Source of the DNA: an uncultured Chloroflexia bacterium
GTDB taxonomy: Bacteria; Chloroflexota; Anaerolineae; Caldilineales; Caldilineaceae
NCBI GenBank assembly: GCA_963752485.1
Contig: CAVVYP010000007.1
Span: forward strand, 462,993-526,992
Direction: 5' to 3'
Length of the DNA: 64,000 bases
The notes under the pieces are model-generated. The model was not told where the DNA came from, did no database searches, and worked only from the letters and a program-made list of their open reading frames with translations. The first letter of the stretch is position 1. Each line of letters opens with the position of its first letter. Shown piece by piece: positions 1 to 64,000 of this stretch. Both the position numbers and the translations under genes were made by a program.

Positions 1-3000
1 CGCCCAGGCCAACCGCTCATAGCGCCACACGGTCTGGCCTGCGTAGTTGCTGTTCTCACCGTTCACCACCCACGGAATCTTCAGGAAGGTATCGCCGTAG
101 TTTTCCGAGCGGGTGTAGTAGGCGTCCGTGGGCGGAGCCTCTGGGGTCACGCTTTGGCCGCCCGTGGACTTGACGTTTTCGCCCGCGCCCGGCCACGAAG
201 AAGATGTTATCCAGATACTCGTCTTCCATGAAGCGGAGGACGGGCAGGGCAGGGTCGCGGCCGTCCACCGGGAAGACCGGCGGCGTGGCGCCAACTCGCG
301 GGTCGGACGAGGTCTCTTTGTTGTTATCGAACTCGGAGACCTTGATGGCAGGTTGGAACTCACCCGGGCCGATGTATGTGCCGGTGATTTCGCATTCACA
401 GACCGCGCCTTCTTCGCACGGCGGACACCAGTCCACACATTCCGGATCGAAGCCGTCGTAGGTGGGCGGCGCATTGCCGCTTCCGTCCTCGTCGGGCACC
501 GTCGGATCCGAGCGCCATTCTCGACAGAAGTAGACGCCTTCGCTATCCGTCACTCCGTCGCCGTCCACGTCGGCCGGAGTGGTTGTCCACGTCTGACCGC
601 CATCGAACGACTTGCGCAGGTAGAAGTTGTAGCGGTCGTTGCCGTTGCGAGCCGCCGCCCAGTTGGGCGACCAGGCGTAGGCCGCCACCACGAAGTCGCC
701 GCGGATGAAACCGCGATGGCTGCGTGCGTTGGAGTACATGCCGGCGCAACTTGTCTCATCACACACCGAGGTGTCGTCTACGCCGTAGGATTCGTTGCCC
801 AGGTTGTACGAATGCTGCGACCAGAGCAGCACCTTATCCGTGCCATACACATCGTCCGTGGGATCGTCAGGCGTATCGTCTTCGGGCCCGGCGTCCACCG
901 CGAGGTCGACGTCGGCCGAGGTCAGGTTGACCTGGTCGCGTCGCTCATAGCCCAGATGCGATCCGCGGGCCTCCCGCCGCAGAGCCGGTCGCCACTGGCC
1001 TCGCCCCAGACGTTGCACAGGTAGCCGGTGTCGCTGGACATCCTGCCGTCGCCGGTCGGGCACGACGGCAGATCGAAGGTCTCGTCCAGGTAGGTCGTGC
1101 ACTGGAAGTCTCGAAGCTGTAGGGATTACCCCGCCCTGGTTCACGATGCCACGGGTGAAGACGTCCGCGGGGCGGCCCATGCCTTCCGGCCCTGCTTGAA
1201 GATAATGTTCGCCACGGTGCCGGAGGGGCCCGCCTGCCCGGGGCCTGTCAGAAGAAACGGGCGCGGCGTGCGATCTCCGTGCGGAACTGGAGGAACTGGG
1301 TCTCGTCCGGCATCCACTCGCCGGTGCCGTCGCCGTTGTCCACATACTGGTCAAAGTAGAGCGGAAGGGCAGGCCCGGTGTACAGGTGCAGGTCGGGCGT
1401 CCGCGTCTCGCAGTAGTTCGGGTAGAGGCCGCCGCATAGGGCCGGCAGGTTCACGATGTGCCCCGCCGACACAAGGTCCGGCTGCGTGAGGTCGAACCAA
1501 TGGCAGATGAGTTCTTACCGAGTCCTGGCGGATCGCTGCTCTCGCCGCCTTCGCCGGGAACGATCTCGCCCGTGTCACCGCCGCCTTCGTCGTGGGCCTC
1601 CGCGGCCAGCGAGTGGCCCATGCCCTTGGACTCTTCATAGGAGAGCAGCACCCAGGCGCTCTCCGTGCCGTCCGGCTTCGTGTAGGTTTGGAGGTGGATG
1701 TTGGAACGGGATGCGCTCCATCACGTCCAGCAGGCGACGTCCGAAGAGATGCGACTGTCTTTGTGCTGCCCTCAGTGTTTATGAAGCGGTACCAGCGCTC
1801 GTGCGCCGTGCTGCCCGGCATGTCCAACATGATGCCGTCGATGTCGCCGTGGTTATCCGACGTGGCGCAGAGGCTCGAGCTTATCCGTGCGACAGGCGCG
1901 ACGCTGGCTCTCCGGGGCGAGGCAGGCAAAGGGCTCGGGGCTCACCGCGTCGCCATGTATCCGACCTCGTCCTGGGTCCATCGGTACGTAGGAACCGGTC
2001 GCTGGGTCAAATGGCGGGCAGCTCCGTGTCCGCATCCAGCGTGACCTTCAGCGGTACCCGGCGCTCACGATGTCATTGTCGGAGATACGCACCGGCAGAG
2101 CGAAGGGGAACGAACGCCTTTCGCCGGCCCAGGCCCGGGCTTTTCGGTCCGGGCTGCTGCTTCCGGCGGGCTGCTGGTATGAAGCGCTCGTCGAGTATGG
2201 AAAAGTCCTCTTGCGTGATGTAGGGGTATACTTGATGTTCTCGGTCTTGCGCATTGGAAGATGGCTCTGCTCGAACCTTCGCCGGGGCCCTTACCCTTGC
2301 CGGGGCGCAGACCGCGGTCCTCCCGCCAGGCGGATGGCAAAGCCGGACCGTGGCAGGTTGCCCGACCATCGGAGTTGAAAGCATCGTGGCGACCGGAGGT
2401 GATGCGCTCGGGCTCGAACCGGACAGATGTTGCTTATCCCGCGACCGCCTCGCTCTCGTCCCTCTCTTCTGTATCGGGATCGTCCAGCCCTTGTCGATGG
2501 GGAGGCGAAGCGCCTGCTGTCGAGGTCCGCCTGCGTCGAGATCGATGCTGTGGCTGCTGCATAGTGCTCTGCACGGGATCCCGCCGATGCCGAGGTCGGC
2601 GACGTTGTCGCATCTCGTCATAGTTGACCGAGCCTTGCTGACCGAGGACGCGCCAGATGTCATTGACAAAGTATGCGTCGTCATACGGGTAGTCGGGCTC
2701 GCAGACTCGCAGAACCCTGTCTGTGTTGCTGAAACAAGAGACTGCGGAGCCCGGTTCCGGTGTTTCGGCCTCTCGGTGTGTCTGGTTGATCGCCCAGGTC
2801 AACGGCGTAGCGTGGGTCGCTGTTTGCGGGTGTATGTGCTCGTCGACACGGCAAGGATGCGATTGTTGTTTATCTTCTATTCTGCGGAGACGTAGTGTGC
2901 CCGGGAAGGGCTGGCCCGTCTCGAGGTCGAACGAGGAGAAGCAGTTTGGCCATGTGTGACACATTCATGCGCTTCCACGGGGCTGTCGTTGTCGCGGGAG

Positions 3001-4500
3001 AGACTGCTATGTGACAGTTGACTGGCGAAGCGATCGTCCCAGAACTGGGTTGTGACATCGTCGTCGAGGACTCCGATCTCGCCGAGATAGCTCGACGGCG
3101 AGGGGTTCGGTCTCATCGCTGAGCACTGTGATGAGCGTTACGCGGCACGTCTCTTCGTCGACATAGTTGCGCTGGTCGCACTTCTTCCGTCGTTGGACTC
3201 GTCATACAGCTCGATACCCTCCGTACGCTACGCCCAGGGCGTCGCCTTCATCCGGGTCGTAGAGGCGGTCGCCGTTCACGTCCCACACAGCAGGGACTGG
3301 TTGCCATTGGAGCGGTAGCCGGGGAACCAGAGCGGCACGACCTCGATTTCGCCGGGCTGCTGTTGCTGAATTTTCTTGTTGTCTTGGTGACGTTCTTGCG
3401 GGGGAAGATGCCGCTGGCGCTGATGCCGTCGGTCAGGTTCGGCTGCGCTTGCTCGGCAGAGAAGACGACGAGCGTCGCCTCCGGGTTGCTGGTGGACACC
3501 GCGGTGCTTCTCGGCGATGAGTGTATCTGACTCAGACCGTCGTCGACCGGTCGACGTTGCCGGATCCACGGCAAGGTTCGCGGCCGCCGTGTTCAACAGC
3601 CCCGACGCTGGGCCAGATGTCGATCCCCGCCTGTGGGTTTCTCGTCCGCGTCCATGCTCTCGAGAGCCGGGTCACGTTCGTCATGGCCAGGTCTTCCACG
3701 TCGGCCATGAAAATGTTGAGCGGCGAGATCTTGTTGCCGGTTTCCGCCTGGCCCAGATAGACGTTGCCGACCCACAGGTCGACGCGGCTCTGCTGGGAAT
3801 AGTCAAAGCTGCCGGCCTCGTCGGTCAGGCCCGAATTGCTCGGGGTAGCGAAGCCCAGGCCGCCCACAGGCGAGGTCGAGAAAGTGGCGGGCGACGGGGT
3901 GTGCAAGCTGACAGTCGAAGGTCCAGCGGACTTCGAGCCGCGTTTAAAACTGGTCCGGACCGTAGGCTGCAGAGACGCTGCTGTTGCGCCCCGCTGCGCC
4001 CGTTTCCGTCCAGGTAGTAGAGCTGAGCGTGGACAGATGGCGATGGTGGGGAAGCGGTAGTCCGACGACGTGCCGCGAGACTTGAAGCCCCAAGTCCTCT
4101 TTGAGGTCCAGGGTAAGTTGGTGCACGGTGGTCGGGGAAACCTTGGTACGCTTCGTAAACGGGGACTTGCCTGGTATGGGTTTCCGTTGTTGGCCGCCGG
4201 AATCGGTTCAAGTCCGGGTAGCCGGCGTAGACCATGACTGGCCTGATGGCTGCAGCCCTCCATGGGCTCGACCTTGACCATCAGCTCTTGGGTGAGTCCA
4301 CAACTTTCACCGTGCCCATCTCTTCGTCTTGTTGGTGAGTAGCGTGGCCTCATGGGTCCCGGCCCCACGGAACCGGCGCGGGCGCCGGCGACGCTGGGCA
4401 GGAAAGCAGCAACGCGAAACAACAATGGGATAACTATATCAGCGTACCCATCCTGCGTTCCATGATTGCCCCCTCTCTTTGAACTGCATCTTGGACGCAC
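1..4500 (-). pseudogene. Remnant of a very large (>1400 aa) extracellular protein with BNR/Asp-box repeats. It is broken into at least 8 frames and runs off the window start.
   Basis: Protein-like minus-strand segments in successive frames (ORFs 56..1354, 1248..1472, 2434..2964, 2877..3116, 3248..3574, 3532..4500). Asp-box motif SFDGGQTWT is present. Composition is plausible for a real protein (e.g. ENYGDTFLKIPWVVNGENSNYAGQTVWRYERLAWA at the window edge). No single frame is open for more than about 430 aa. Confidence 0.4.
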
Positions 4501-5247
4501 GGCGTACGAATCCGGAGGCCCGTAAACTTTTGGATGAATGAATGTGATGTCATGGTCAGTTCTCGCGTCGGCGATCCCTGCATCCTTGCGTCACAGCCGG
4601 CCCGGGCCAAGCGAACCGTCTGCTCTCAGCCGGCTATCGAAGATGCGAAGCTATGTTCCGTTCCGCCGAGCGGCGGATCGTGCGGTGGAGCGCCGTCCGA
4701 GACGGACACCGAGACCGGTGGAGACGAGCATGTTGGGGAGGCACTGTAATCGCGGCTGTTCGCATCACGATCGCCCGGTCGCTGTTCAGGTCGACGCCGA
4801 GAAGCATGGTCCCGGGCAATCCATACAGCAGGGATAGGATGCGGCACGACAGCGGAGTTCCGATTTCGAAGACGATCGGGCTCGGGTCTGAGCGCTGCGG
4901 CACAGGTCTTGATGTTGAAACCTGGGGGTTCATTCGTGTCTACGGAAATCGAATGCCTCTCCATCAAAGAGAGCGCCAACGCCTTCCATGAGAACGGAAT
5001 CCCTACGACTAGAACGCCAGGCCCGCGTGTTCATATACGGTCTACCCGTGGCGGTCGGCCGTTCTTTGCGGCCGACGTCTCGAGTGAACGGCGGACACGG
5101 GCGCGCTTCAATCGTTCTTCGCCTCATCGAGGCATGAACAAGAGTAGCCTCGCTAGGCCGAAGCGACCGGCGAGTGATAAATTCGCTCCGTTTAGGAATG
5201 AGTGAGCCAGTTCGGGGCCGGGCAGGGGAGGTGATTCACCGGCGACC

Positions 5248-5900
5248 TCATCGCGCCGGTGCGCATGCGGCAGCGTTAGGAAGGGCGTCGCTGTCCGGGG
5301 AAGGAGGAATCAGCCCCTTGCGCAGGGCGTACTGGGCGGCTTCATGGCGATGGCTGAGCTGGAGCTTGGCGAGGAGTTGCGCATGTGGGTCTTGACAGTG
5401 TGGATGCTGATGGTAAGCGTCTCTCGGCGATCTCCTGGTCGGTCGCGTGCTGGGCGGCAGGCTCACACCTCCTGCTCGACGGTGAGTAGGCTGGTGGATC
5501 ATCCGCGACGATGTCGTGTGACCGTCCGGCTGAGGCGGCGGAATTCGTCGAGCATGCGGCCGCTGAGTTCGGGCGTGAGCGCGGCTTCGCCGTGCACCGC
5601 GCCGCGGCAACATGGCGAGCAGTCTCGGGGTGGATACTCTTGAGCAGGTAGCCTTGGGCTCCGGTCTTGATAGCCTCGAACAGCTTGTCGTCCTCGTCGC
5701 GCACGGTGAGCATGACGACGATGGTCTGGGGGAGGCGGCCTTGACGGCTTTCGTGGCTGCGACGCCGTCGCAGCCGGGCATGCCGCACATCCATCAAGGA
5801 TCAGGTCCGGCTTCAGCTTTGGCCTTCGACCACCCTTCCAGCCCGTCACGGCTTCTCCGACGACTTCGAAATCGGGCTGGGTGTCAGTATCGTTGCCATC
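5248..5900 (-). pseudogene. NarL/FixJ-family response regulator (receiver + LuxR-type HTH), frameshifted.
   Basis: Receiver motifs KPDLILMDVRMPGCDGVAATKAVK and VVMLTVRDEDDKLFEAIKTGAQGYLLK lie in different frames. The C-terminal LuxR HTH AQLLAKLQLSHRHEAAQYALRKGLI lies in a third frame. Confidence 0.55.
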
Positions 5901-8900
5901 CCTTCACGGAAGAGTGGTGATCGTCCCGCGAGCAAAACGCGAATGACTCGGATAGCGCCATCCCCTTGCGCTAGGCAGCCCCTCACGACGTATGACCAGC
6001 TGAGCACCTGTGAGCTCTTTCGGACAGCTTCTTGGCGATTGCTTTCCTGTAGATTTTCTTCTGTCGATCGCGTTCTGTCGATCGCCTTCTGTTGTTCGCC
6101 GTCCTGCGGTCAACGTTCGGGGGGCTGCCGGTTTGCGGCCAGGTGGAGTACGCGGGCGCCCTCGCCGGGCGGTGTATCGATTTCTACAACGCCGTCGATA
6201 TGTGCGGCGCAAGTCTGCATGATGCTGAGGCCGAAGTGACCGCCGTCTGGGAGCGTTCCTGCGGTTGGAATCCGCGGCCGTCATCGGCTCGACGACATGC
6301 GAATCGCCCCGGGCAAGCGCGGCGGTGACGGTGATGCGGCTGCGCCGGCGTGGCAGGCGCGCGTTCAGGATCGCTTCCTGTACACGGCAGCACCTGCTCC
6401 GACTCGTCCGGCGGCAGATACAGGGGATCGGACAGATGCGCTACGACTTCCCACGGGCGGTTCGTCGTCCACAGCGAACTCGCCGGCGATGCGCGCCGAG
6501 CGATTCCTGCAACGATGGCGCGGCTCCGGGTCCGCCTGCAGGCTGGTGATGGAGCGCCGCACTCGGTCGACGTGCGGTCGATGGGCGCTGCACTTGCAGC
6601 AAGTTCTGTCTGGCGCCTGCTGGGAATTGTCGTTTTCCGATGGGCGAGGGCGATGTCCGTCTTTAGATTCATGTAGCTCAGGACCTGTGCCAGGCCGTCG
6701 TGCATGTTGGCGGCGATGCGCTGTCGCTCTTCAAGCGCCGCGGACAGTTCGGCCTGCTGGTGGAATGTCGCATTGGCCTGGGCAACGGTGCACGGTGGCC
6801 GAAGCGTTCAATGAGGCTGATTTCGTCGGGTCGCCAGCGCGGGCCGATGGTCGAAAGGGCCGAGGAACTCGAGCGAAGTGGCGTCCGCCGAGGGGCAGAC
6901 AGAGCACCGGCGCGGCATTCTGAGTCCCCCGCCAGAAGCGCGGAGCGCGGGTCCGCCGACGCGTCTGGTGCGACGGTTGTCCGCTGGGTCCGAGAGACTC
7001 CGTCAAGAGGGCTGCGGGGATAGATCCTGTTTAGAATGGCGTTGCTCATCTCTGGCCCAGACCATGGCTGGCGACAAGCTCGCACGTCTTCTGATTGTCG
7101 GAACAGCGGAAGACGGCGGCTTTGCTGCATCCGCCGAGCCGCGTGGACTGCTCGGCGATGGTGCGGTTGACGGCGTCGGGATCGAGTGTGGCGGCGAGCC
7201 GGCCGCTAACGCGGTGCAGCAAGTCCAACTCCGCGGTCGACCGTTCCGCTGCCTGGTAGAGACGGGCGTTCTCCACGGCCATAGCGATCTGCTGGCCGAT
7301 TGCGGTCAATTGCTCTACGACGGACTGTTGATCCGCGCCGATACGCCGCGAGCCGACGGTCAATGACCCGACGGTGCGGCCTTTGGTGATGAGCGGGATG
7401 CTGATGAGCGTCTGGATATTTGCGCTTTCCAGGCACTCAGGAGCGTCCGGCGATTCCGAATCTGATAACGAATGACTGAGGGACTGCCGTTCGCTGATGG
7501 CGTCGGCTGCCAGCGCGATGAGGAACCTCTGCTCGTTCGCCCGCTCCGACCAAATCGTCTGCGGATATGCAGCCGCGGACGGCCTGCGGCGTAAGTTCGC
7601 CGGTTTCCGGATCCTGCAAGTGGATGACGCCTATCTCCAGGTCCTGCATCGACAGTACGGTGTCGAGCGCGTCGTTGAGTATCGCATTGAGATCCAGCGA
7701 TTGGCTGACGGTGGAGGCGACGGCGTTTTGCGCGGCGAGGCGGGCGTTGCGGCGTGCGATTTCGATCTCGGCTTGCTTGTGCTCGGTGATGTCCTGGAAA
7801 ACGACCACGGCGCCGGCCAGTTGTTCGTGGGTGCGCACGGGGTTGGCGATGTAGCGGACGGGGAAGCTGGCGCCGTTTCGCCGCCAAAAGACCTCGTCGT
7901 CTCCCAAGCGCTTGACGCCAAACCGGTAGGCCGGGTAGATGGGGTTCTCGTCCTCGCGATACGAAGCGCCGTCTTGACGGCTGTGCAGCCAGATGTCGTG
8001 GCTGGACTGGCCGATCAGCTCGTCGCGGGCTCGTAGCCAAGCATGTCGGCCGCAGCCGGATTCACGAATGTATACCGGCCTTCCCGGTCGAGCCCGCAGA
8101 TGCCTTCCCCGGCCGATGCCAGAATCATTTCATAGCGCTGGCCCAGATTCTCCAGCGCGGCTTCGGTCTGCTGGCGCTCGCGTATCTCGTCGCGCATCTG
8201 TGCGTTCACGGTTTCCAGTTCGGCGGTGCGCACGGCGACCAGTTCCTCCAGATGCTCTCGATGGAGGGCGAGCGCATCCTCCGCCTCCCGTTTCTCAATC
8301 GACTGTTCACGTAGATAGATAAAGCCGAGCACCGGGATGGCGAGCAGATGGAGGCTGTTCGCGACGGGACACATGACGTGGTTGTAGGTCTTGTCGGATC
8401 CGTAGTTGATCAGGATGATGAGCTCGCTCAGGAAGAAGAGTGAGAGCGCCAGGACTACGACGCGGCTCAGCCATGCCCGTTTCCTGGCTAGGTGGAAGAT
8501 GGCGACGCCCATCAACAGAAGCAGAGAGCTGTGAAAGAGCCACGCGATCCACGATAGTGGAAGTGAATCTGCGGATTCTGGGCAACCTGCCGCGGCCAAA
8601 CGGCGATGCCCGCCGCAAAGGCCAGGGCCGTCATCGCGCCGCCGGCAATGAGAAACCGGCGCGAGAGGCGCTCGTCGTCCAGCGCATAGCGCAGGAACGC
8701 GCCGGCCACCGCCACGATGGCGGCCATGGTGAGCGCATGCTCCAGCGGCTGGTGCAGTGCTCCCAGTCCGGATTCCTCGCCGACGATCATGCGTTCGGTG
8801 ACCTGGCTGAGCATGAAGAGCTCTCGCGTTAGGCCCAGGCCGAAGCCGAGGAGCAGAGTCGCTCGCGGCGGAAATGCTGGGACCGCTGCCGGGACCATGC

Positions 8901-9030
8901 GATCATCAGGAGAACGGCCCACAGGATGGCGGCAAGACCGAAGCGGACCAGATTGTTTTCAACTGGGCCGGGCCCGCCGGCAAACTCGCCCAGCAACGTT
9001 AGCAGATAGTCGCCCACGTCGTTCACTGTA
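5900..9030 (-). pseudogene. Membrane multi-domain sensor histidine kinase (TM region, PAS, GAF, HisKA_3, HATPase_c), with multiple frameshifts.
   Basis: TM-rich N-terminus (ORFs 8829..9026, 8512..8922, 8015..8599). PAS segment GICGLDREGRYTFVNPAAADMLGYEP. PAS/GAF segments in 7437..7907 and 7046..7363. HisKA_3 signature MHDGLAQVLSYM at 6705. DDGRGF and QEAILNAR HATPase fragments lie in other frames. Confidence 0.5.
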
Positions 9031-9516: not shown

Positions 9517-10386
9517 TTGTGGCAATGCGCTTGGAAGGAGGCAGATCGACCATGGGGCTTGACGGTGCGTTGGCGAGATTTGACGCGGACACGGACTGAA
9601 TCGCGGCGCCGCAAGGCGCTGTATCAGCAGGTCTCCTGCTTTTTCCGGGAATGCCAGGTGGACCTGCTCTCGTTCGAGGATGTGCGCAAGGAGATGCACC
9701 TGACGCAGAAGATTTATCGCGGCGTGCAGGACATTCCCGTGGACCGCATCCGCGGCAGTGTGGGGCGATACGATGATTTCACGTCGGCATTTCTGCCGCG
9801 CAAGGGCCATTTGCGAGAACGATGGGAGCGCGTCGATCGTGCGATGATGGCCGGAGAGACGCCGCCCATCGAAGTGTACCAGGTGGGCGACGCCTACTTC
9901 GTGCTGGACGGCAACCATCGAGTTTCCATCGCCCGCCAGCATCGCCAGGACCTGATCGAGGCGGTGGTCTGGGAATACCCCAGGCCGCGCGGCCTGGGAG
10001 CCGACGTCGACATCCTGGCATTCGTGAACGACAGCGAACGCAGTGAATTTCTGGCGAAATACGGCCAGTGTAGCCCGCAGGCTGTGGCCGAGATCGTACT
10101 AACTTGCGCGTGTTGCTACGAGGACCTGGCTTCCATGATTGAGGCCTATCGACGAGGTCTGGATGAAGCTGGTGCGGGCCCGGTCTCCACGGAGCAGGCG
10201 GTGTCGGGCTGGTATAGCGAGGTGTACGCCCCGGCGATCGCAGGCATTCGCCAAAACGAACTACTGGCGCGCTTTCCGGATCGAGCCGAGGCGGACCTGT
10301 TCATTTGGGCGTGGAAGAATAACCAGGACTTGGAAGAGATGGCGCGGGCGGAGGGGATAGCGCCGGTGGCAGGCAAGGAATTGTAG
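9517..10386 (+). CDS. ParB/sulfiredoxin-like nuclease-domain protein. The true start is probably an internal start codon.
   Basis: DGNHR motif in YFVLDGNHRVSIARQHRQDLIEAVVWEY. N-terminal region KIYRGVQDIPVDRIRGSVGRYDDF. Single open frame of 289 aa. Confidence 0.55.
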   Translation: MWQCAWKEADRPWGLTVRWRDLTRTRTESRRRKALYQQVSCFFRECQVDLLSFEDVRKEMHLTQKIYRGVQDIPVDRIRGSVGRYDDFTSAFLPRKGHLRERWERVDRAMMAGETPPIEVYQVGDAYFVLDGNHRVSIARQHRQDLIEAVVWEYPRPRGLGADVDILAFVNDSERSEFLAKYGQCSPQAVAEIVLTCACCYEDLASMIEAYRRGLDEAGAGPVSTEQAVSGWYSEVYAPAIAGIRQNELLARFPDRAEADLFIWAWKNNQDLEEMARAEGIAPVAGKEL

Positions 10387-52985: not shown

Positions 52986-53690
52986 CTACGCCGCCTGCCC
53001 GACGATGAAGTCACGCGCATTCATCGGCTGCACCGGCCGTGCGTTCCCCGTGTACAATGCCTTGAACGCCGCTATCTGTCCCGCGGACAATTCCACCGGC
53101 TCCCGCAACATCAACCACTTCACGCCCTCCGTACACGGCGGCGTCGTCAGCGACCCGTCCCAGCGCCAATAGCTGCGATCCTCCGGCAACAGCGCAGCGG
53201 CATCCACAGCTACGCCGGCCACATCCACAGGATCGCCCGGTGCATCCGGCATGTTGTCGAAGACCGGCGCATATGCCTGTGTTCTCCGCACCCTCCACAA
53301 GGAAAACACCCACCACCGCAATCTCGCCCTGGCCGTTCTACGTGGACCAGATGCATTTCCATCTCGGTGGCCACGCCGTCTACCGTGTTTTCGCTCGGAT
53401 TGTGGAAGTGAAACTGCAGCAGCCGGTACCGCTCACCGTCCACCTCCAACCCGCTGCCTGGATCGTAGTTCGCCTGGATCGAATGGCCGTTGTTGACGAT
53501 ATGCAGCGCGAGGGAGGCATAGTCAAAGACGAGGTCAGCCGGATTGACCGGCGCCGTCGACGGGATGTCGATGGGCGATTGCTCCCGCCCCGACTTGCAC
53601 ATCGCAAACGAGCGGGCTCAGATCGCCCCAACGATCTGGGCCATCTGTCGCCCTCATACCCCCAGTGCAATCTCCGGATTGGACTCTACT
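52986..53690 (-). pseudogene. Alpha-class carbonic anhydrase, with at least 2 frameshifts.
   Basis: HWGYEGD, QSPIDI, QFHFHNPSE and GSLTTPPCTEGV motifs spread over three frames. Confidence 0.65.
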
Positions 53691-53951
53691 TGGACACGAT
53701 GTCTCCTTTCACCTGTTGTAGAGACTGCGCAACTCGGACCAGTTCGGACTAGTATCTCGCTCATTCTGCGCACAAATCGCCCTGATCAGTTCGGCGGGGT
53801 CAAACGGCAACGCGTTCGCGGCGCCGGGTAGCCGCGTCAGCCCACGTGCTCCAACATTGCCCGGATGTCGCCTGATGTGCCGGCCGATAGAAGCCCTCCT
53901 CCGCCCACGCCTTCATGCCTGCGGGCACAGCCTGCGCATACGGGAACCTGA

Positions 53952-54778
53952 TCAGCGCCTCCACATCCGCGCCCTGCGCAGGCACTGCCGGCGACCCCAG
54001 TTCGCCAGTGCCGCACGACATCGTGCCTCCAGCGTATCAAAGTATTCGATATTGCCGCGGATCAACTCCGGACCCGGCCCACACCGGCGCATGACAGTAC
54101 AGAGTCGATCGCGCATCGAGCGCATCCAGCCGCGCCAGCGAGTCCCGCAGATCGACAAGTCCGCCTTCGTCCGGTGACGGAAACGGCGTCTCCGCAGCAT
54201 CGCCCGCCAGAACGTGGCGAATCTCCGGAATATAGACTGAGCAGTGGTCAGGCGTATGTCCCGGCGTAGCAAAAAGTCCAGCGTCAGGTCTCCGCCGTCA
54301 ATCGTCAGCGCCTCGTCGAACAGGATGTCCGGCGGGCACAGACGCACGCCGTCATAGACGTCCGGCTGCTCCCGTTGCAGCCGCAGAAGCTGCTCGCTGT
54401 TCTTCGTTCGATCGCATCCGTCGGCGCATCCCGCGTGCCGATGATCGGGCGCCGGCGCCATACCGTCGGGGCAGCGAAAAGCTGATTGCCCCACGCATGG
54501 TCATAGTCCGCGTGCGTATTGACGACGAGCAGCCCGCGTCCGTGCAGATGGGGCCGCGCCAGTTCCAGCAGCGCCTGCGCCGTCGCCTCGTTCACCAGCG
54601 TATCCACCAGCACGACATAGCGCTCGCTGACGACGATGAACACGTGCATGGGCAACGCGTATGCCCCGTACACCAACTCATAGCCGCACACCAGGATGCG
54701 CGGGTCCCAGCCCTGGTTGGGGACAAGCGTCACCTGTGCAATCCCTGCATCGCTCATCGCGGACCTCCCCGTCCGCAA
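53952..54778 (-). pseudogene. MBL-fold metallo-hydrolase, frameshifted.
   Basis: HADYDHAWGN (HxHxDH) motif in ORF 54305..54778. The continuation lies in another frame. Confidence 0.5.
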
Positions 54779-55065
54779 ATCCTCAAGCAGCCGCCCTCCG
54801 ACATGATTGCACGGCAGCCCAGCGACAAATCATAGCGCATCCCGATCCCTGTATGAAGTAGCGCTGCATCTCACCGCGTATCCGAGCTATCTGGAACCGG
54901 CGATACAGAAGCGTGCGCCGCCCTACCGGTACCATTACATACTCGACGCAGCACACCGTCGCAGCAGCCAACATGAGCACAGGGTCCCTCGATCGCACGC
55001 AGTCGTAGGAAGTTTCGTACGTGAGACGTTCCGCCTATTCTGTCAGTCTTCACAAGGAGAAACCC

Positions 55066-55860
55066 ATGCGCAAAATACAAGAGCTCAATCGCCGCACGTT
55101 CCTCATGACCGCCGGCAAGGGCGGCTTCGCACTGCTCTCCGAAATGACCTTCGGCTTTGGCCGCCGCGGACTCGCCGTCGCACTGGGCGGTTCCGGACTT
55201 GCGGCCGCAGCCTGCCAGCCGGTGATGCCGCCGGCCGGCATGTCCGGCGCAGCCGAGCCCGAAGAGATGGCGGCCGCCTACGCTCGCGTGCTTTATGGAC
55301 TTCGTCAGCGCCTATGTTCTCATACGCGGTGCGGAAGTCGCCATCGTCGACACGGGCACGCCCGGCAACGCAGCGAAGTTCGCGGACGTCATCCACGTCC
55401 GCCGGACTCAACTGGAGCGACGTCAACCACGTCATCCTTACCCATCACCACGGCGACCATGTGGGCGGCCTGGCCGAGATCGTCAGCCGCGGCCACCGCC
55501 TCCACCATCTATGCCGGCGAGGCCGACATCCCACAGATCCAGGCGCCTCAGCCGATTCAGCCCGTGCTGGACGGCGACGAGGTCTTCGGCATGCAGATAA
55601 TCGGCACGCCGGGACATACGCTGGGTCACGTCTCCATCTACGATCCGGTAGGCTCGCTCCTGATCGCGGGCGACGCCGTGGCCAATCAGGACAATCTGTT
55701 CACCGGCTCCATCCCCCGTTTCACAGCAGACATGGGCATGGCCAACGACAGCGTCAGGAAGCTGGCGACCCTGTCGTTTGAGACGCTCGTCTTCGGCCAC
55801 GGCGATCCCATCGATACAGGCGCTTCCGAAGCGGTGGCGGAACTGGCAGCCACGCTCTAG
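55066..55860 (+). pseudogene. Tat-secreted MBL-fold metallo-hydrolase, with at least 2 frameshifts.
   Basis: RRTFLMTAGKGG Tat signal. THHHGDHVGG motif in frame 2. C-terminal GTPGHTLGHVSIYD…FGHGDP in frame 1. AAGGAGA RBS. Confidence 0.6.
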
Positions 55861-56041
55861 CGGTGATAGAGTAATCCCGGAAGGCCGTACAGTCCGCCGC
55901 TGCCGCTGAGTCGTAGGTCAGGTCCCCGGCCTGACTCGGTACCGGTGCGTAGATTCCGGCTCAAGGCCGGAATGACAGCGGCGACCCGGTTCCCTTGGAT
56001 TCTCGACGAACGCACACCATCGCATCGGAAAGGCTACTGAC

Positions 56042-56961
56042 ATGCATATCGCAGTGATCGGCGCAGGCAGTCTCGGCGCCGTATACGGCGCGCGCCTGGC
56101 GCAAAGCGGGCAGGACGTCACCCTGATCGACATCGACGAAGAACACATTGCGAGCATCAACGCGCGACGGCCTTCGCTTCGAGGAAGACGGCATGGAGAC
56201 CGTCCTCACCGTGCGCGCCTCCATTGACCCGGCGGCCGTCGCCCAAAGCCGACGTCGCCCTCATCATCGTCAACGCCTACTCCACAGGCGACGCCGCACA
56301 GTCGGCGCATGCCCTGCTCAAAGACGACGGCTACGCGGTCACGCTGCAGAACGGGCTTGGCAATATCGAGGCAATGCAGGAAGTATTGGGCGAAGAGCGC
56401 GTCGTGGGCGGCATCTGCTTCATCAGCGGCGCGCTCAGCGGCCCCGGTGCGGTCAAGCAGACCGGCACAGGCCCCACGCACGTCGGTGAGCTCGACGGCA
56501 CGCGCAGCCAACGTCTCGAGGCCCTGGCCGCTGCGCTGGAACCCGCCGGCCTCAATCCGGTTATTGACGACGACATCATGAACATCATCTGGGGCAAGTT
56601 CGTCCACAACTGCGCGGTCAACGCCGTGTGCGCCATCACCGACCTCAATCCCGGCTACGTGCGCGAGGTGCCGGAGCTGGACGAATTCCGAACCTGCATC
56701 ATCCGCGAAGCTGTGGCCCTGGCCGATGCAGTGGGTGTCGAGCTGCCCGACGAGGACCCGGTCGCCACGATCCAGGCGTGGGCGGCACAGCGCTTCCACC
56801 GGCCTTCCATGATGCAACACCTCGACCGCGGCCTGCCCACCGAAATTGACGCGCTCAACGGATACTGTGCGCGCGAAAGCGCACGTCTCGGCCTGTCCGC
56901 TCCCTGCAACGACGCCATCACGCGGCTCATGAAGGGGCGGGAATACCTGCCCGCGACATGA
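56042..56961 (+). pseudogene. 2-dehydropantoate 2-reductase (ApbA/PanE family), frameshift near 56170.
   Basis: MHIAVIGAGSLGAVYGARLA Rossmann N-terminus. The remainder lies in ORF 56224..56961 (…NGLGN…IIWGKFVHNCAVNA…). Confidence 0.65.
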
Positions 56962-57036
56962 CGCGAAAGGGCCGGCTCGTGGGTCCCGCTGCCACGAACC
57001 GGCCCTGCGTTGCCGCATCCGATATCACTCCTCGCG

Positions 57037-59511
57037 CTACTCCACACGCACCGGCTTCACGCCCCAAATGTCTTCGACATATTCCTGGATCGCCCGGTCC
57101 GAGGAGAAGAAGCCGCAGCGCGCTGAGTTCACGATCGACATGCGCGTCCAGCGTTCCGTGTCCTGGAACGCGGCCGCCGCTGCCTCCGACGCCTCCACAT
57201 ACGGCGCATAGTCCGCCAACAGCATGAACTCGTCACGGTCGAGCAGGCTGGAGACGATGGGCTGGAACAGCTCCTTGTCTCCGCCGGAGAACAATCCCGA
57301 GCCAATGCAATCGATGGCGCGGCGCAACTCCGCATTGCTTTCATAGTATGCCCGCGGGCTATAGCCGTTGCTCTTCGCCTCAAAGACCTCATCCGCCGTC
57401 AGCCCGAACAGGAAGAAGTTCTCCTCGCCCACACGTTCGCGGATCTCGATGTTGGCCCCGTCCAGCGTGCCCACGGTGATCGCGCCGTTGAGCGCGAACT
57501 TCATGTTGCCCGTGCCGGACGCTTCCTTGCCCGCCATCGAGATTTGCTCCGAAACGTCGGCAGCAGGATAGATGTTCTCGGCCAACGTGACGTTGAAGTT
57601 GGGTAGGAACACGACCTTCAACCGATTGCGCACGTCCGGATCGTGGTTGACCACCTCGGCCACATCAGTTGATCAGCTTGATGATCAGCTTCGCCATGTA
57701 GTAGCCCGGCGCGGCCTTGGCTCCAAAGATGAACGTACGCGGGGCCATCTCCATGTCCGGGTTATCCTTGAGCCGGTTGTACAGCGTGATGATGTGCAGC
57801 GCCTTGAGCAATTGCCGCTTGTACTCGTGCAGACGCTTGACCATCACGTCGAACAGGCTCTCCGGATTCACCTGCACCCGTGTAAGCTCCAGGATATGGC
57901 CGGCCAGCTCGCGCTTGTCGTCCAGTTTGATCTCTCGCCAACGCCGGCGGAATTCTTCACTCATCGATATGGTCCTCGAGCTCGCGCAGCCGCTCCAGAT
58001 CGCGCAGCCACCCATCGCCGATCGTCTCGGTGATCAGCTCCGAGAGACGCGGATTGGCGATGCGCATGAAGCGCCGCGGCGACACGCCATTGGTCTTGTT
58101 GTTGAACTTCTCCGGCCAATACTCGGCGAAATCGGGCAGCGTGCGCTCGCGCAGCAGCTCGCTCTGCAACTCGGCGACGCCGTTGACCGAGAAGCTGCCG
58201 ATGGTCGCCAGGTTCGCCATGCGCACCATGCGCTCGTCGCCCTCTTCGATGATCGACATGCGGATCACGCGTGCCTCGTCGTCCGGGTAGCGCTTGCGCA
58301 CCTCACCCAAGAAGCGCTTGTTGATCTCGTAGATGATCTCCAGATGTCGCGGCAATAGCGACTCGAACAGGCTGACCGGCCACCGCTCCAGCGCCTCCGG
58401 CATCAACGTGTGGCACGTATATGCGAATGTGCGCCGCGTGATGTCCCACGCGCGGTCCCAGTCGAGAAAGTACTCGTCCAGAAAGATGCGCATCAATTCC
58501 GGAATGGCGATCACCGGATGGGTGTCGTTGAGCTGGATCACGACCTTTTCCGGGAACTTTTCCAGGTCCTGGTTGCGCAGCCGGAAGCGACGGAAGATGT
58601 CCTTCAACGAACAGGCGACGAAGAAGTACTGCTGCGCCAGCCGCAGCCTCCGCCCCTGCGCGTTGTTGTCATTCGGGTAGAGCACCTTTGTCACGGTCTC
58701 GCTGCGCACCTTGCCTTCAACCGCACGCGCGTAGTCGCCGATGTCGAATAGCTGGAAGTCGAACGCCTTCGTCGCCCGCGCCCGCCACAGGCGAATCAAA
58801 TTGACCGTGCGCGTCCCGTACCCTGGCACAAGCATATGAATCGGCTCGCCCAACAGGTCATTGGCGGGGACCCACCGCGTGCGATAGAGACCTTCCTCGT
58901 CCATGTACCGTTCCGTGTGCCCGCCAAAATGCACCTCCACCATGTCGTCGGGCTGCTGGAATTCCCACGGGTTGCCCAGAAAGAGCCAGTCGTCCGGCTG
59001 CTCCACCTGCCAGCCCTCCTGAAAGGTCTGGGTGAAGATGCCGTACTCATAGCGAATGCCGTAGCCCACTGCGGGGATGTCGAGCGTCGCAAGGGAGTCC
59101 AGATAACACGCAGCCAGCCGGCCCAGGCCGCCGTTGCCAAGCCCGGGTTCCTTGTCCAGGGCAACAAGATCGTCCAGCGAAATGCGGAATTCCGCAGCCG
59201 CCTCTCTCGCCATGTCCCAGGCGCCGGCATAGAGCATGTTCTGCGTCAACTGCTGTCCCAGCAGATATTCGGCAGAGAAGTAGTAGACGAACTTCGGGTT
59301 CGCCTCGTATTGCGCTTCCGAGGTCGCGTGCCAGTTGTGCACGAGCGCGTCGCGCACCGTGTAGGCCAACGCTGTGTAAACGTCGAGCATACTTGCAGAC
59401 TGCACGGCCGAGCCGCGCGACATAGTACAGGCTGTCAATCAATGACTCCTTGAACTTGTCCAGCGTGTCCGTCCTGCGCGTTTGGCTGAGGCTATTTGGA
59501 ATCATGGACAT
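57037..59511 (-). pseudogene. glgP: Alpha-glucan (glycogen/maltodextrin) phosphorylase, GT35, with 3 frameshifts.
   Basis: Family segments (…[16 protein letters not shown]…, [12 protein letters not shown] pyridoxal-phosphate region, …TLYNRLK…) lie in four frames (57037..57663, 57665..58015, 57957..59438, 59047..59511). Confidence 0.7.
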
Positions 59512-59693
59512 CCTCCCCGAATGTCTATTCTACTCGCTACACGTCGTACAAAGATTCGCTGAATCGTATTGCCGGTCGCGGTGACTGGTTCTCGCGGTGA
59601 GCGCCAGCGAACCTGCCCGCCAGAGCCAATGCGCGTCATCTTCCTGCCACCGTAGCGACTCGGCGGCTACTTCCTATACGGTGACTACTTCCT

Positions 59694-61562
59694 CTATATA
59701 TGGAACGGCCAAACCAACGGAATGACCAACAGACTCACGACCAAGAACAGAATCACAAGCGGCAGGCCGACACGCATGTAGTGGTTGAAGCTGTAGCCGC
59801 CCGGCGCCATCACCAACAGATTGGGCGGCGTGCCGATGGGCGTCAACAGCGCCGAAGACGCGCCGACCGCCACAATCATCAGGAAGGGATACGGCGACAA
59901 CCCCAGGCTGAGCGCCGCGGACAAGACGATCGGCGCCACCAGCACCGTCGTGGCCGTGTTGCTGATCACCTGGCTAAACCCAGACGTGAGCACGAAAACG
60001 CCCGCCATCAACGCCAGCGGGCCTAGCGAGCCCAGCGTATTCACCAGCGTGGACGCGATCAACTCCGCGCCGCCAGTCACATTGAGCGCCGTACTCATCG
60101 GAATCATCGCCGCGATCAAGACCACGCTGCTCCATGAGATAGCGCGATAGGCCTGCTCGCCGTTGAGACAGCCCAGCAGCACCATTGCGACTGCCGCCAT
60201 AACGGCCGCAATCACAGTCGGAACCATGCCGCTGACCATCAGCACGATCATGGCGACAAGAATTCCGCCAGCCAGCACCGTATCGCGAGCTGATGTCCAC
60301 TATCTGCTGGGCCATGGCCTCCGGCTGGCCCACCACGACGAAGTTTCGGCGCTCATTCGCCAACTGCTCAATGTTGCTCCACATGCCGCGCACGAGGAGC
60401 GAATCGCCGAACTGCAGCTTGACGCGTTGGCGCATGGCCAGCTCGTTGTTGCGCAGCACGCCCATCACCTGCACGCCGTAGCGCTTGTAGAAGCCGCTCT
60501 CGGCTAACGTCTGGCCGATGAAGCTGGAACGCGGCGTCACCAATACCTCCGCCAGGCCGATCTCGTGCGAAAGCAACGTGCCGGAGAGGGGCTCCGTGTA
60601 CTCGTCCAGACACCTGCACGCCAAAGTTGAAATCGCCCATGGCTTTCTGGACAATGGGCGCCGTGGCGCGCACAAGCAGCTCGTCGCCGGGGCGCAGAAC
60701 TGTATTGCCGTCGGGCATCAACACGTCGTCCAACCCCCAGCCGTCAACAATCGGCTCGCGCTCGCCGTCGTTGTGGTGTTTGACGCTGAGTACCGTGATC
60801 TCGTAATCGTGGCCCAGGCCGGACTCCGCAAGCGTCATACCCGACAGCTTCGACTGCGCACGCACGCGCAGCCGAAACAATTTGCCGTGCAGCGAATACG
60901 CGTCCGCCCACTCGCCCACCGACATGTCCAGGTCCGCCGGCGGCGACAGATTCGTGCGGTCAGGCAACATGCGCACTCCCAGCAGAACCATATAACCGAT
61001 GGCAGACGAGGAGCAGCGGCAGCCCGATCAAGGCGTACGCGAAGAATCCGAACGGCTCGAACCCCGCCGCCGATAGCGTGTCCGCCACCACAATGTTGGG
61101 CGGCGTCCCCGTCAGCGTAAGCAGCCCGCCCGAATTGGCGGCATACGCCAGGGGCATCAGGAACTTGGCCGGTACGCTGGCGACCCCCCATGCCGCAGCC
61201 ACCACAGCGGGCATCAACGCGGCCACCGCCCCCGTGTTGCTCATAAAGGCCGAGAGCGCGGCGGCAAAGACCATGAGGGCCACAAGCAGTCGCAGCGTAC
61301 TGCCGCCTGCCAGCGAACGGAGCCGGCTGCTCATCCAGGCCGTCACCCCGGAACGCGACAATCCCTCGCCTACCACAAAGAGCGCGGCGATCATGATGAC
61401 GGTCGAATCACCGAAGCCGGCCAGTGTCTGCGGCAAGGTAAGGATGCCGGTCAAATACAGGGCCAGCAAGGCCAGCAACGCGATCACATCCGAGCGAAGC
61501 TTGCCCCACACAAATAGGACGACGGTGAGCGCAAGAATGGCGAACGTCAGGTACATGCATTT
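59694..61562 (-). pseudogene. SLC13/DASS-family permease with two central TrkA-C (RCK_C) domains, with 3 or more frameshifts.
   Basis: Two TrkA-C-like segments (…LAEVLVTPRSSFIGQTL…; …MTLAESGLGHDYEITVLSV…) flanked by TM-rich halves in separate frames. Confidence 0.6.
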
Positions 61563-61770
61563 CATCAACGCCAAACTCTCATGATTCGCATCCAAGTGAT
61601 CTCGCGACTTCGCGGCGGCAATCGGATCCTCAATTGCGCCGCGGCAAGGCCGAAGCACACGCCCCCAGCGGACGCGAATTCGCCTACACCCATGACAATA
61701 TACGCATCAGCGCTGCAACGACAAACATCTGCGCCGGCGAACTGCACGCGATTACCGGGGAGTCCGGACT

Positions 61771-63859
61771 AACTCTTGATCTCGGCGGCGAGAATGACCA
61801 CCGTGCGCGGTTGCACGGTGTAGACATACGATTCGACCGACGGGCGCCGTCGCCATTTCGCTGAAGTCGTCGGGCGGCTCCAGATACGTGTCGACGATTC
61901 GACGCCAGCGCCCATTGCGACCGCTGTTCAGACCTGCGGCAATTCAAACTCCAGCGCCTCCCAGTAGGCGTTGACGATCACCTGAAATGAGAAACTCCGG
62001 CCTCGTACTGTGAACGAGAACGTGTGTGAATCATCGCCCCAGTCCGGCTGGTGCAACTTGACGCCGTGCCACTGGATGCGCGCCCGTTCCAGCAACTCCG
62101 TCAGACAAAGGCCGTGGTCATCGCGAAAAGATGTCCAGATCCTGGCGCAGCCGGATCAACCGCTTCACGAAGCGGTGCATATCCGCGTGCTTCTCGACCA
62201 GGTCTCCAGTCGAACCAACTGATCTCGTTGTCCTGGCAATAGGCATTGTTGTTGCCGCGCTGCGTCCGGCGCACTTCGTCGCCCATCAGCAACATGGGCA
62301 CGCCCAGCGCGCCGAGCGTCACGACGAAGAAGTTCTTCACCTGGCGGTTGCGCAGCCGCTCGATCTCCGGATCGTCGGTGGGTCCCTCGACGCCGCAATT
62401 CCAGCTCAGGTTGTAGTTGTGGCCGTCGCGGTTGTGTTCGCCGTTGGCCGCATTGTGTTTCTCGTTGTACGAGACGACATCGTTCAGCGTGAACCCGTCG
62501 TGGCAGGTGACGAAGTTGATGCTCTGCTCCGGCTCGCGATCGGCATGTCCGTACAGATCCGGGCTGGCCAGAAAGCGTGCAGCCACGTCCTCGGTCATGC
62601 CCTCGGTCGCCCTTCAGAAACGCGCGCACGTCATCCCGGAAATGGCCGTTCCATTCCTTCCAGTGGTCGCCGGCAAAGTTGCCCACCTGGTAGAGACCCG
62701 CCGCATCCCACGCCTCGGCGATCAGCTTTGTTCCGGCCAGCACGGGGTCCGTCTCGATGTCCCAGAGGATGGGCGGATTCGCCAGCGGCACGCCCTCCTC
62801 GTCGCGCGAGAGGATCGACGCCAGATCAAAGCGGAAGCCGTCCACGTGCATCTCCTCCACCCAGTAGTGGAGGCTGTCCAGGATCATACGCCGCACCACA
62901 GGCTGGTTGGCGTTCAGCGTGTTGCCGGTGCCGCTGTAGTTGGCGTAGCGAGCGCGGTTCTCCGTCAGAATGTAGTAGGCGCTGTTCTCCAGCCCCTTGA
63001 AGCAGAAGGTCGGCCCGGCGTGATTGCCCTCCGCCGTGTGGTTGTAGACCACATCCAGGATCACCTCGATGCCCGCCCGGTGCAGCGCCTTGACCATGTC
63101 GCGGAACTCGTTGAGCGGGCCCAGCGGATCCTGGTTGGAGCTGTACGCGCAGTGCGGCGCAAAGAACGAGACGGGATTGTAGCCCCAGTAGTTGGTCAGT
63201 CCCGAGCGGCGCTTCCTGCGCATCGAACTGGAACACCGGCAACAATTCCACCGCGGTGACGCCCAACTCTTTGCAGATAGGGAATCTTCTCCACCAGACC
63301 GGCGTAGGTGCCGCGCTTGTCTCGCGGCAACACCCGAGTTCGGGTGTCTGCGTAAAGCCGCGCACATGCATCTCGTAGATGACGGTGCGGGCAAAGGGCG
63401 GCCGCAGCGGCTCGTCGCCTTCCCAGTCATAGCTGGACTCATCGACCACCACGCTGCGCATGGCGTAGGGCGTGTTGTCGCCAAGCGCTCTTGGCCGCGT
63501 CGCGACTGTACTGCGCCGGCACAGCAACCGCCCGCCCATACGGGTCCAGCAGCAGCTTCTCCCCATCGAAGCGTAGCCCCGCCTCCGGATAGTTCGGTCC
63601 AAAGGCTCGGTAGCCGTACACCTGACCGTTGCCGATGCCTGGCACAAACGCATGCCAGTAGTGAAAGGTACGGTTGCGTTTGGGATGCAACGGGATAACG
63701 CTGGCAGGTTCCGCGATCGTCCGGGCCGTCAAATAGAAGAAGATGGAGTTCCGTGCTGCTCTTGGAATAGACGGAGAAGTTGACGCCGCCGGGAACCACT
63801 GTAGCCCCAAGGGGAAAGGTGCGTCCGGCTCCGATCTCCGGATTGCGTTTTCTGCTCAC
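61771..63859 (-). pseudogene. glgX: Glycogen debranching enzyme GlgX (GH13 isoamylase), with at least 4 frameshifts.
   Basis: N-terminus PLGATVVPGGVNFSVYS…LHLLLFD. GH13 motifs DVVYNHT, GFRFDLAS, EAWD and [10 protein letters not shown] distributed over several frames. Confidence 0.7.
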
Positions 63860-64000
63860 AAAGCGCCCTGTCTGCTATGCCATGTCCTGCGTGGAGCGAT
63901 CCATCCAGTGTGCCGGGGCCGAGGCGCAGCCGTGCAGACGTCGAGGAATCCACGCGTATTGACGCCCGCTGGCGCGAGTTGAACACGATTTCGTATCGAC

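Follow-up and report, generated by a model that had tools for sequence, protein, structure and literature searches.

Why do so many genes in this stretch of Chloroflexota DNA fail to read through? In the 64,000-nucleotide stretch analysed here (the window), about 41 genes could be assessed, and at least 23 of them need a change of frame, from 1 to 35 times per gene. A first-pass annotation had seen at least 25 such genes with one to four changes each; the observation is real and the count close, but one to four changes, while right for some genes, is too low for several (35 in one histidine kinase). It left two answers standing: assembly or sequencing error, or a genome in active reductive decay. 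We find that the frameshifts are almost certainly errors left in the consensus when a Caldilineales-like Chloroflexota population was assembled from long metagenomic reads.

Where the genes are broken

The 90% cluster of a 681-aa protein encoded in the window, whose contig measures 690,790 bp, led to two further, independent ENA assemblies, A (ERZ25039603 contig_3685) and B (ERZ25039600 contig_91083). Both are 95-99% identical to the window and colinear with positions 5522-41137 and 47015-64000 (about 51 kb). They represent different strains, at 1-5% divergence, rather than the same cells assembled anew. MAG C (GCA_046259705.1), with 81-84% nucleotide identity to the window, served as outgroup; contig E, 85-89% identical and error-laden too, was an outgroup for 59.7-64 kb only. 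MAG D (GCA_041391185.1; 79% nucleotide identity) was dropped as a reference, being itself fragmented, and GTDB species representatives, with a best match of 70% amino acid identity, were too distant for site-level use. Frame changes were called against intact orthologues in A, B or C or against distant protein homologues, and the features are as follows.

1-1717, minus strand: hypothetical gene of about 650-720 aa, running off the window start; at least 4 frame changes, near 190, 955-970, 1240 and 1511
About 5.25-5.98 kb: response regulator; needs a frame change
5983-9026, minus strand: PAS/GAF histidine kinase; 35 frameshifting indels in the window, intact at 1,006 aa in A
10683-14790, plus strand: clean segment (GFO-AKR fusion, Zn-ADH, AP_endonuc_2); zero window-private indels, at least 8 indels in B and 1 in A
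15018-16146, plus strand: GFO_IDH_MocA oxidoreductase (GFO375), 375 aa in A and B; -1 at 15022 and +2 at 15371-15380 in the window
16923-18372, minus strand: IS701-like (DDE_5) insertion sequence, 1,450 bp long and flanked by a CTAG target duplication, inside a gene for a 421-aa hypothetical protein
19362-20646, plus strand: MFS transporter, 427 aa in A and B; +C at 20286 in the window
21101-25647, plus strand: clean segment (LacI, SBP, two ABC permeases); zero window-private indels in genes
25799-27255, plus strand: GH32, intact at 484 aa in A; +G at 26364 (also in B) and +G at 26872 (private) in the window
28058-29228, minus strand: hypothetical protein (hyp389), 389 aa in A and B; +G at 28868 in the window
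31319-33165, minus strand: Band_7/SPFH protein, 615 aa in A; -A at 32723 in the window
34580-35426, plus strand: RibD_C (DHFR-like) protein, 281 aa in A; +G at 35334 in the window, 10 indels in B
36871-38443, plus strand: epimerase (epimerase-523), 523 aa in A; +G at 37465 in the window
39021-41363, minus strand: UvrD helicase, 780 aa in C; +C at 40937 and +A at 41047 in the window, A and B broken elsewhere
45890-47350, minus strand: sulfatase; the frame changes once, between 46326 and 46361, where C and further homologues have 486 aa in one frame
Within 47494-48762, minus strand: hyp189; +1 at 47943
Within 47494-48762, minus strand: PCuAC copper chaperone; -1 at 48189 and +G at 48504 (common to B)
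49848-50972, plus strand: FAD oxidase (DAO), 373 aa in A; three +1 changes, at 50373, 50656 and 50753
53011-53697: alpha-CA; 8 indels
53837-54757: MBL306; 11-12 indels
Within 55066-56961, plus strand: MBL263; 3 indels
Within 55066-56961, plus strand: PanE/ApbA, 305 aa in B; +G at 56166 and +T at 56239 in the window
57037-59540, minus strand: glycogen phosphorylase (GlgP); at least 3 indels (57667, 57960, 59419), A and B broken at other sites
Within 59694-63859, minus strand: SLC13/CitMHS transporter; 5 indels
Within 59694-63859, minus strand: GlgX; 11 insertions of one or two bases in the window, 692 aa in A

In the first of these genes, consecutive tblastn HSPs to four distant homologues lie in frames -1, -2 and -3; the homologue search gave matches of at most 77% identity, which serve to set frames, not sites. 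Across 0-5.5 kb, Pfam searches of the ORF fragments gave no match and a cluster look-up of ten ORFs gave no relative, and for 1.7-5.2 kb and 44.1-45.9 kb neither a close relative nor a Pfam match was found. In the Band_7/SPFH gene, the deletion puts the N-terminal 150 or so residues of the window's 624-aa ORF out of frame.

The damage is patchy. The first-pass annotation had called 10.7-14.8 kb and 21-25.7 kb free of frameshifts, and indeed no gene in either segment (10.7-14.8 and 21.1-25.7 kb) has a window-private indel; the sole event across both lies between genes, where a T6 run is shortened to T5 at 22192. It had also placed a shift at 15375-15385 in an A homopolymer. A two-nucleotide gain does lie at 15371-15380, where an A5 run is interrupted, but the length of the run is unchanged, and two G insertions, of which one falls within the run, explain the gain best. 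Two stretches are densely affected.

5522-7056: 145 mismatches and 44 small indels relative to A, the indels being 18 insertions and 26 deletions
53200-54500: covers alpha-CA and MBL306; B has its own patch at the same place

Per kb, the first patch, which may begin before 5522, contains 28.6 indels and 94 mismatches; in the next 3.3 kb these figures fall to 2.1 and 7.0. Mismatches to A in the kinase fall on codon positions 1, 2 and 3 as 38, 32 and 51, a third-position bias much weaker than elsewhere. At the second patch, 26 of the window's 63 private indels fall in the two 1-kb bins at 53 and 54 kb.

Private indels in three assemblies

Are the same genes broken in the relatives? In 40.3 kb of three-way alignment, we counted 63 private indels for the window, of which 53 are 1 bp long, as against 30 for A and 132 for B. 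Among 31 genes, 14 are privately frameshifted in the window, 11 in A and 15 in B, at differing sites, and hardly any gene lacks an intact copy among the three. GH32, MFS, GlgX, DAO and both MBL genes are intact in A. The gene for the sugar-binding protein, intact in the window and B, is split in A by +C at about 22948; Zn-ADH and the AKR fusion, intact in the window, are frameshifted in B. C has intact PanE, MBL309, alpha-CA, NadA and PCuAC as well as the full-length sulfatase and UvrD. The comparison with orthologous loci that the first-pass annotation had suggested thus finds genes broken in one assembly and intact in another, with the frameshifts private to single assemblies. Inherited inactivating mutations were sought in the close relatives, and no site was clearly common by descent. 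Taking the majority base of the window, A and B repaired many ORFs; others stayed broken, as errors in two of the assemblies at times lie a few bases apart.

Indels do not track gene function. The first-pass annotation had pictured, should the frameshifts be real, a genome in which sugar uptake is retained but two-component sensing, glycogen catabolism and CO2 hydration are being lost. This pattern differs between assemblies (the sugar-binding protein is frameshifted and GlgX intact in A), and the claimed loss of two-component sensing fails in the window itself, where an intact histidine kinase and two response regulators lie at 41.7-44.1 kb.

The insertion sequence at 16923-18372 had been described as cleanly inserted, with an intact target duplication and a broken transposase, and this description holds. 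As read from the sequence, its termini are imperfect inverted repeats, TACT(G)ACAGTTGTA, flanked by a 4-bp CTAG direct repeat; the element is missing from A and B, where the empty site is CTGG. The transposase matches Pfam DDE_5 (E = 1.5e-51), and the stitched 403-aa product does so at 2.3e-52, with the match reaching profile position 5. The element thus has the DDE_5 transposase of about 403 aa, the terminal inverted repeats and the short direct repeat of the IS701 family, a call that rests on Pfam, but differs in that its transposase frame is broken once, near codon 28 (near 18220-18235). The insertion itself is real. The broken frame had been taken to imply either sequencing indels or mobilisation in trans of a defective copy. 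The error rate suffices: at 1-1.6 indels per kb, about 1.5-2.3 are expected in a 1.45-kb element, so mobilisation in trans is unneeded. The transposase frameshift most likely arose by the same assembly error process.

Indel spectrum and selection

Errors in homopolymers are the classic signature of Nanopore, 454 and Ion Torrent data, and spontaneous small indels in bacteria are deletion-biased and occur mainly in nucleotide runs. The private indels fit neither picture. Insertions outnumber deletions by 41 to 19 (about 2:1) in the window, 20 to 10 in A and 97 to 35 in B. Of the 53 window-private 1-bp indels, 39 (about 74%) do not adjoin an identical base and 14 touch one; the proportion not adjoining one is 70-75% in each of the window, A and B. 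The homopolymer bias for which the first-pass annotation had proposed to look is therefore absent from these 1-bp indels. This result excludes the homopolymer subtype of error, not consensus error in general. Nor does it rescue pseudogenisation, since an insertion-biased, non-homopolymer 1-bp spectrum is unlike that of spontaneous bacterial indels.

A search for motifs around the insertions gave moderate CGCG-type enrichment (3-fold for CGCG contexts; 3-6 fold across CGCG, CCGCGG and CGCGGC) and no clean methylation-like motif. Private indels also lie near strain-variable sites at 1.4-2.2 times the local background, which suggests that the consensus fails where haplotypes mix.

We then considered whether the broken genes look abandoned once their indels are corrected. 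In 28 corrected window genes there are 2 in-frame stops, one of them adjoining an indel. Window-private substitutions in the broken genes comprise 191 synonymous, 83 non-synonymous and 1 stop, where the neutral expectation is 76, 194 and 5.3; none of 500 neutral simulations rose as high as the observed synonymous count. Intact genes have 49, 14 and 1 (expected 19, 43 and 1.6). With dN/dS at about 0.17 in frameshifted and about 0.13 in intact genes, the broken genes carry the same signature of purifying selection as the intact ones. Relaxed selection, with dN/dS moving toward 1 and a build-up of nonsense mutations, is not seen in them; with the indels removed, they look like functional genes.

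Error, decay and the recurrent sites

Because A and B are different strains, each private indel could strictly be a strain-specific mutation. Could the window strain, A and B each be undergoing genuine, very recent pseudogenisation with frameshifts of its own? The deposited sequence does contain the frameshifts, one IS is truly inserted in a gene, the window is without a 5-kb sugar-transport block found in A and B, and a window-private nonsense substitution shortens an ABC permease by 11 aa. Mass pseudogenisation does accompany reductive decay, for example in Mycobacterium leprae and recently host-restricted symbionts, and the window resembles such genomes in its many adjacent, unrelated, interrupted genes and in having an IS. 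Here, however, inactivating mutations are not shared, nonsense is almost lacking, there is no deletional bias, the "pseudogenes" have the dN/dS of intact genes, and A, B and C keep genes intact. Decay would require 0.7-3.3 private frameshifts per kb in each of three strains 1-5% apart, and 35 frameshifts in the kinase and 11 in GlgX imply far more neutral substitutions than are seen. A 1.5-kb patch at about 12% difference beside more than 99% identity is likewise unlike the accumulation of mutations. We regard pseudogenisation as extremely improbable; the first-pass proposal of active reductive decay is not supported by these data, while its alternative of assembly or sequencing error is strongly supported by the private indels in three assemblies, the odd spectrum and purifying selection. 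Programmed ribosomal frameshifting or recoding was rejected, as the sites are private and scattered and have no common motif; an alternative genetic code was rejected, as they are private and unordered.

Seven +1 sites deserve separate mention, because in each case two assemblies gain a base at the same or a nearby position where, by Pfam, A keeps its frame. The window and B coincide at 26364 (GH32), 48504 (PCuAC) and 55394 and 55484 (MBL263), and the window and E at 62201, 63323 and 63348 (GlgX). About 2-3 such coincidences are expected overall by chance; in GlgX alone there are 3, where independent errors predict about 0.3-0.4. Could most indels be errors and the remainder real frameshift alleles or strain polymorphisms, with these sites as candidates? 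At 55394, however, neither the inserted base nor its offset agrees between the window and B, and E is 89% identical to the window, so that common descent of the three GlgX frameshifts without A is implausible. The CGCG-type enrichment and the proximity of private indels to strain-variable sites also speak against such a mixture, which we hold to be highly improbable. Errors in long reads depend on k-mer context, and hard sites fail repeatedly at low depth; the recurrent sites could be context-dependent errors of this kind. That the seven are non-random, as real frameshift alleles in Caldilineales populations or as lineage-specific modification or context miscalls, seems to us very unlikely.

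How might consensus errors of this kind arise? The platform was probably of Nanopore/Flye type, and the names of the A and B contigs ("contig_N") resemble Flye output. An insertion-biased, patchy pattern away from homopolymers calls for low local depth or collapsed strain heterogeneity, rather than systematic homopolymer miscalling, as its source. Where depth is low, or reads of co-occurring strains are collapsed, the polisher would leave mostly 1-bp insertions and deletions, and two stretches of the contig would stay near raw-read quality. Gene callers would then split intact genes into fragments that mimic pseudogenes.

Watson and Warr reportedly made the point in 2019 that indel errors in long-read assemblies fragment gene calls. 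Indels left in a Nanopore consensus lead to frameshift errors when genes are called, and polishing is required for bins with less than 40-fold coverage (PMC9262707); the same pseudogenising effect of indel errors has been described elsewhere (PMC12007338). The window resembles these artefacts, which are of the kind revealed by IDEEL-type protein truncation, in its mostly 1-bp indels splitting conserved genes, in a severity that varies between assemblies of the same taxon, in the restoration of genes by relatives and in being a long MAG contig. It differs from the classic form in that its indels are insertion-biased, not centred on homopolymers, and clustered in raw-read-like patches.

Taken at face value, the contig would imply a free-living Chloroflexota lineage in reductive decay, and databases would be seeded with truncated GH32, GlgP, GlgX, UvrD, carbonic anhydrase and other fragments. 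Until it is polished, this MAG, like its sister assemblies, is no reliable basis for inferring metabolism, counting pseudogenes or compiling gene-length statistics. Independent assemblies of near-identical strains, nonsense mutations and dN/dS in the "broken" genes together provide a read-free recipe for telling error from decay. The frameshifts say nothing about the biology of the organism; their significance is one of quality control only.

Close relatives and the extent of frame disruption

The window has a G+C content of 62% and no tRNA genes. Its 681-aa GFO/aldo-keto-reductase fusion (10683-12728) is intact, and the closest species-representative relatives of this protein, from Caldilineaceae and Caldilineales MAGs, reach only 70% identity. 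In a large protein collection, a 100%-identical protein lies on a single 690,790-bp NCBI/ENA contig, which is very long for an uncultured Chloroflexota genome. The 90% cluster of the fusion held two further proteins from other ENA assemblies, which led to contig A (ERZ25039603 contig_3685, 208 kb; loci L081, L083, L085) and contig B (ERZ25039600 contig_91083, 55 kb; loci L082, L084, L086). Their "contig_N" naming resembles Flye output. Both are 95-99% identical to the window and colinear with it over 5522-41137 and 47015-64000. We aligned the three block by block and listed all indels (three-way alignment, 40.3 kb).

Frameshifting indels of the window were scored against orthologues intact in A or B. 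For the sulfatase (486 aa) and UvrD (780 aa), the reference was a more distant Caldilineaceae MAG, GCA_046259705.1 (L087), in which both are intact; for the first gene, it was distant homologues.

Frameshifting indels or frame changes in window genes
First gene, 1-1717: at least 4 frame changes
PAS/GAF histidine kinase: 35
GFO375: 2
MFS: 1
GH32: 2
hyp389: 1
Band_7: 1
RibD_C: 1
epimerase-523: 1
hyp189: 1
PCuAC: 2
DAO (FAD oxidase): 3
alpha-CA: 8
MBL306 (metallo-beta-lactamase-type hydrolase): 11-12
MBL263 (same type): 3
PanE: 2
GlgP: at least 3
SLC13: 5
GlgX: 11
UvrD, 40937 and 41047: 2 frame changes
Sulfatase, 46326-46361: 1 frame change
IS transposase: 1 frame change

At least 23 genes are broken, versus about 18 intact, which bears out the first-pass annotation's claim of widespread frameshifts. 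Its two clean segments (10.7-14.8 and 21-25.7 kb) also stand: apart from one T6-to-T5 change in a spacer (22192), they contain no event private to the window.

The IS element and other sequence differences

An IS of 1,450 bp (16923-18372), with imperfect terminal inverted repeats and CTAG on each side (16919-18376), lies inside a hypothetical gene of 421 aa and breaks it. A and B lack the element, and their empty site reads CTGG; either the target differed by one base or it was CTAG before insertion. The insertion of this DDE_5/IS701-like element genuinely sets the window's strain apart. The transposase (Pfam DDE_5) has a single break near codon 28, and stitching the two frames gave a 403-aa product with a longer Pfam match. 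The clean insertion, target duplication and broken transposase reported earlier are all present. At 1-1.6 indels per kb, 1.5-2.3 are expected in a 1.45-kb element. Hence, no special explanation, such as mobilisation in trans, is needed.

Other differences were also observed. At 10365-10488 the window has only 124 nt where A and B have about 5 kb (L081 4827-9806) encoding a LacI-type regulator, a solute-binding protein and ABC permeases; either the window's strain has lost or replaced this stretch, or the window assembly contains a misjoin. At intergenic position 14903, A and B are about 256 bp longer (L081 about 14240-14500), with repeated palindromic CCCAGGCCAGGAGACCTGGGCTACG-like units suggestive of an intergenic array of REP-type repeats. 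A window-private 24-bp deletion lies at 36289, between the hyp95 and DUF4332 genes. Since GGCGAGC begins both the lost segment, GGCGAGCACGCTCACCGTCTTGCC, and the sequence following it, the event resembles a deletion between short direct repeats. Finally, a lower-GC block (41400-45900; 57-59%) separates UvrD from the sulfatase. These genes adjoin each other in L087, so the block may be an inserted island; A has an equal-length segment at this position, judging by contig coordinates. The block carries:

41741-42832, PAS histidine kinase, intact
42829-43461, LuxR-type response regulator
43653-44099, second receiver protein

Independent assemblies and selection

Perhaps the broken genes reflect a genome in reductive decay, the alternative that had been offered to assembly or sequencing indel error? 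Parsimony gave 63 private indels for the window, 30 for A and 132 for B; almost every one is 1 bp long. Of 31 genes, 14, 11 and 15, respectively, had private frameshifts, at differing positions. Comparison of orthologous loci in close relatives thus found different genes broken in each assembly. The AKR fusion and TerB are broken in B but intact in the window and A; the sugar-binding protein is broken in A alone. The window has the sole intact Zn-ADH of the three and B the sole intact PanE, while GH32, MFS, DAO, both MBLs and GlgX are intact in A. Split-gene sets in the gene calls also differ between A and B. Because the broken-gene sets differ, the proposed loss of two-component sensing, glycogen catabolism and CO2 hydration with sugar uptake retained is not reproduced between assemblies. 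The window has an intact histidine kinase at 41.7-44.1 kb, together with two response regulators.

In the public Caldilineaceae MAG L088 (GCA_041391185.1), LacI, SBP (solute-binding protein) and GH32 are also split. Between them, L088 and contig L089 (ERZ25039600 contig_95096) have split LacI, SBP, GH32, GlgX, SLC13 and GlgP genes, and hence split genes appear to be frequent among the publicly available assemblies of this Caldilineaceae group.

With the intact orthologue as guide, we took the window indels out of 28 genes; two in-frame stops in total were then left, one adjoining an indel. Window-private substitutions were compared with the same mutations randomised within the same genes (500 simulations). 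Frameshifted genes, with the kinase patch excluded, had 191 synonymous, 83 non-synonymous and 1 stop change (neutral, 76, 194 and 5.3); intact genes had 49, 14 and 1 (neutral, 19, 43 and 1.6). In both sets, the observed synonymous count exceeded that of every simulation. From these counts, dN/dS is about 0.17 in "broken" genes versus about 0.13 in intact ones. Drift long enough for 11 frameshifts in GlgX or 35 in the kinase could not have kept this signature of selection.

The sole clear nonsense difference found, perhaps genuine and perhaps a substitution error, was a window-private C-to-A change creating TAG at 24744-24746. With it, the first ABC permease ends at 329 rather than 340 aa, shortly before the start of the following gene.

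Indel spectrum, dense patches and recurrent sites

The window's frameshifting private indels comprise 41 insertions and 19 deletions, and A and B share an insertion excess of 2-3:1. About three-quarters of 1-bp events, in all three assemblies, lack an adjacent identical base, so the suggested check for homopolymer bias was negative for classic homopolymer miscalls. In bacteria, spontaneous indels occur mainly in nucleotide runs and are more often deletions. An insertion-biased spectrum lying mostly outside runs therefore fits real mutation no better than it fits classic miscalls.

Errors are strongly clumped. Window 5522-7056 has 28.6 indels and 94 mismatches per kb against A, versus 2.1 and 7.0 in the 3.3 kb that follow. 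In the kinase gene spanning this patch, mismatches to A are far less third-position-biased than elsewhere (38/32/51 at positions 1/2/3). Of the 63 indels private to the window, 26 lie in a second patch at 53.2-54.5 kb. Both patches look like nearly uncorrected read sequence inside a polished contig. In the second patch (53200-54500) and its counterpart in L086, about 1.3 kb covering alpha-CA and MBL306, private indels and substitutions are densely clustered in both the window and B, with a separate cluster in each, while A is clean; this suggests a region intrinsically hard to polish, for example one hypervariable among co-occurring strains. Window 1700-5200 has no coherent high-GC3 ORF, its coding phase switches every few hundred bases, and the ORF fragments tested gave no Pfam match; it may extend the patch visible from 5522.

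At seven sites, two assemblies have a +1 at one and the same position or only a few bases apart, with A in frame by Pfam domain continuity:

Window and B: 26364, 48504, 55394, 55484
Window and L089 (89% identical): 62201, 63323, 63348

Independent error densities predict about 2-3 coincidences versus the seven observed, some excess over chance that is clearest in GlgX. A few of these sites might be real alleles, though at 55394 the inserted bases differ between the window and B. Among insertions, CGCG, CCGCGG and CGCGGC contexts are over-represented 3-6 fold, and beyond this general enrichment no common motif was found around the recurrent sites. Proximity to strain-variable sites is commoner for private indels than for the local background. 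We attribute these sites to context-dependent consensus failure, possibly worse where several haplotypes collapsed, which would also explain the dense patch that the window and B have in the same place.

That residual indels break up gene calls is well documented for long-read assemblies, above all for metagenome bins with low coverage (PMC9262707, PMC12007338), and large Nanopore soil MAG projects have used Flye assembly with a single Medaka round (PMC12313526); the sequencing platform of the present assemblies is one that we infer. Private indels, purifying selection, the indel spectrum and the patches together make it very probable that the frameshifts are assembly indel errors. We reject reductive decay: the indels are private to each assembly, and dN/dS is as in intact genes. 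We conclude that the widespread frameshifts are not a biological feature of this organism.
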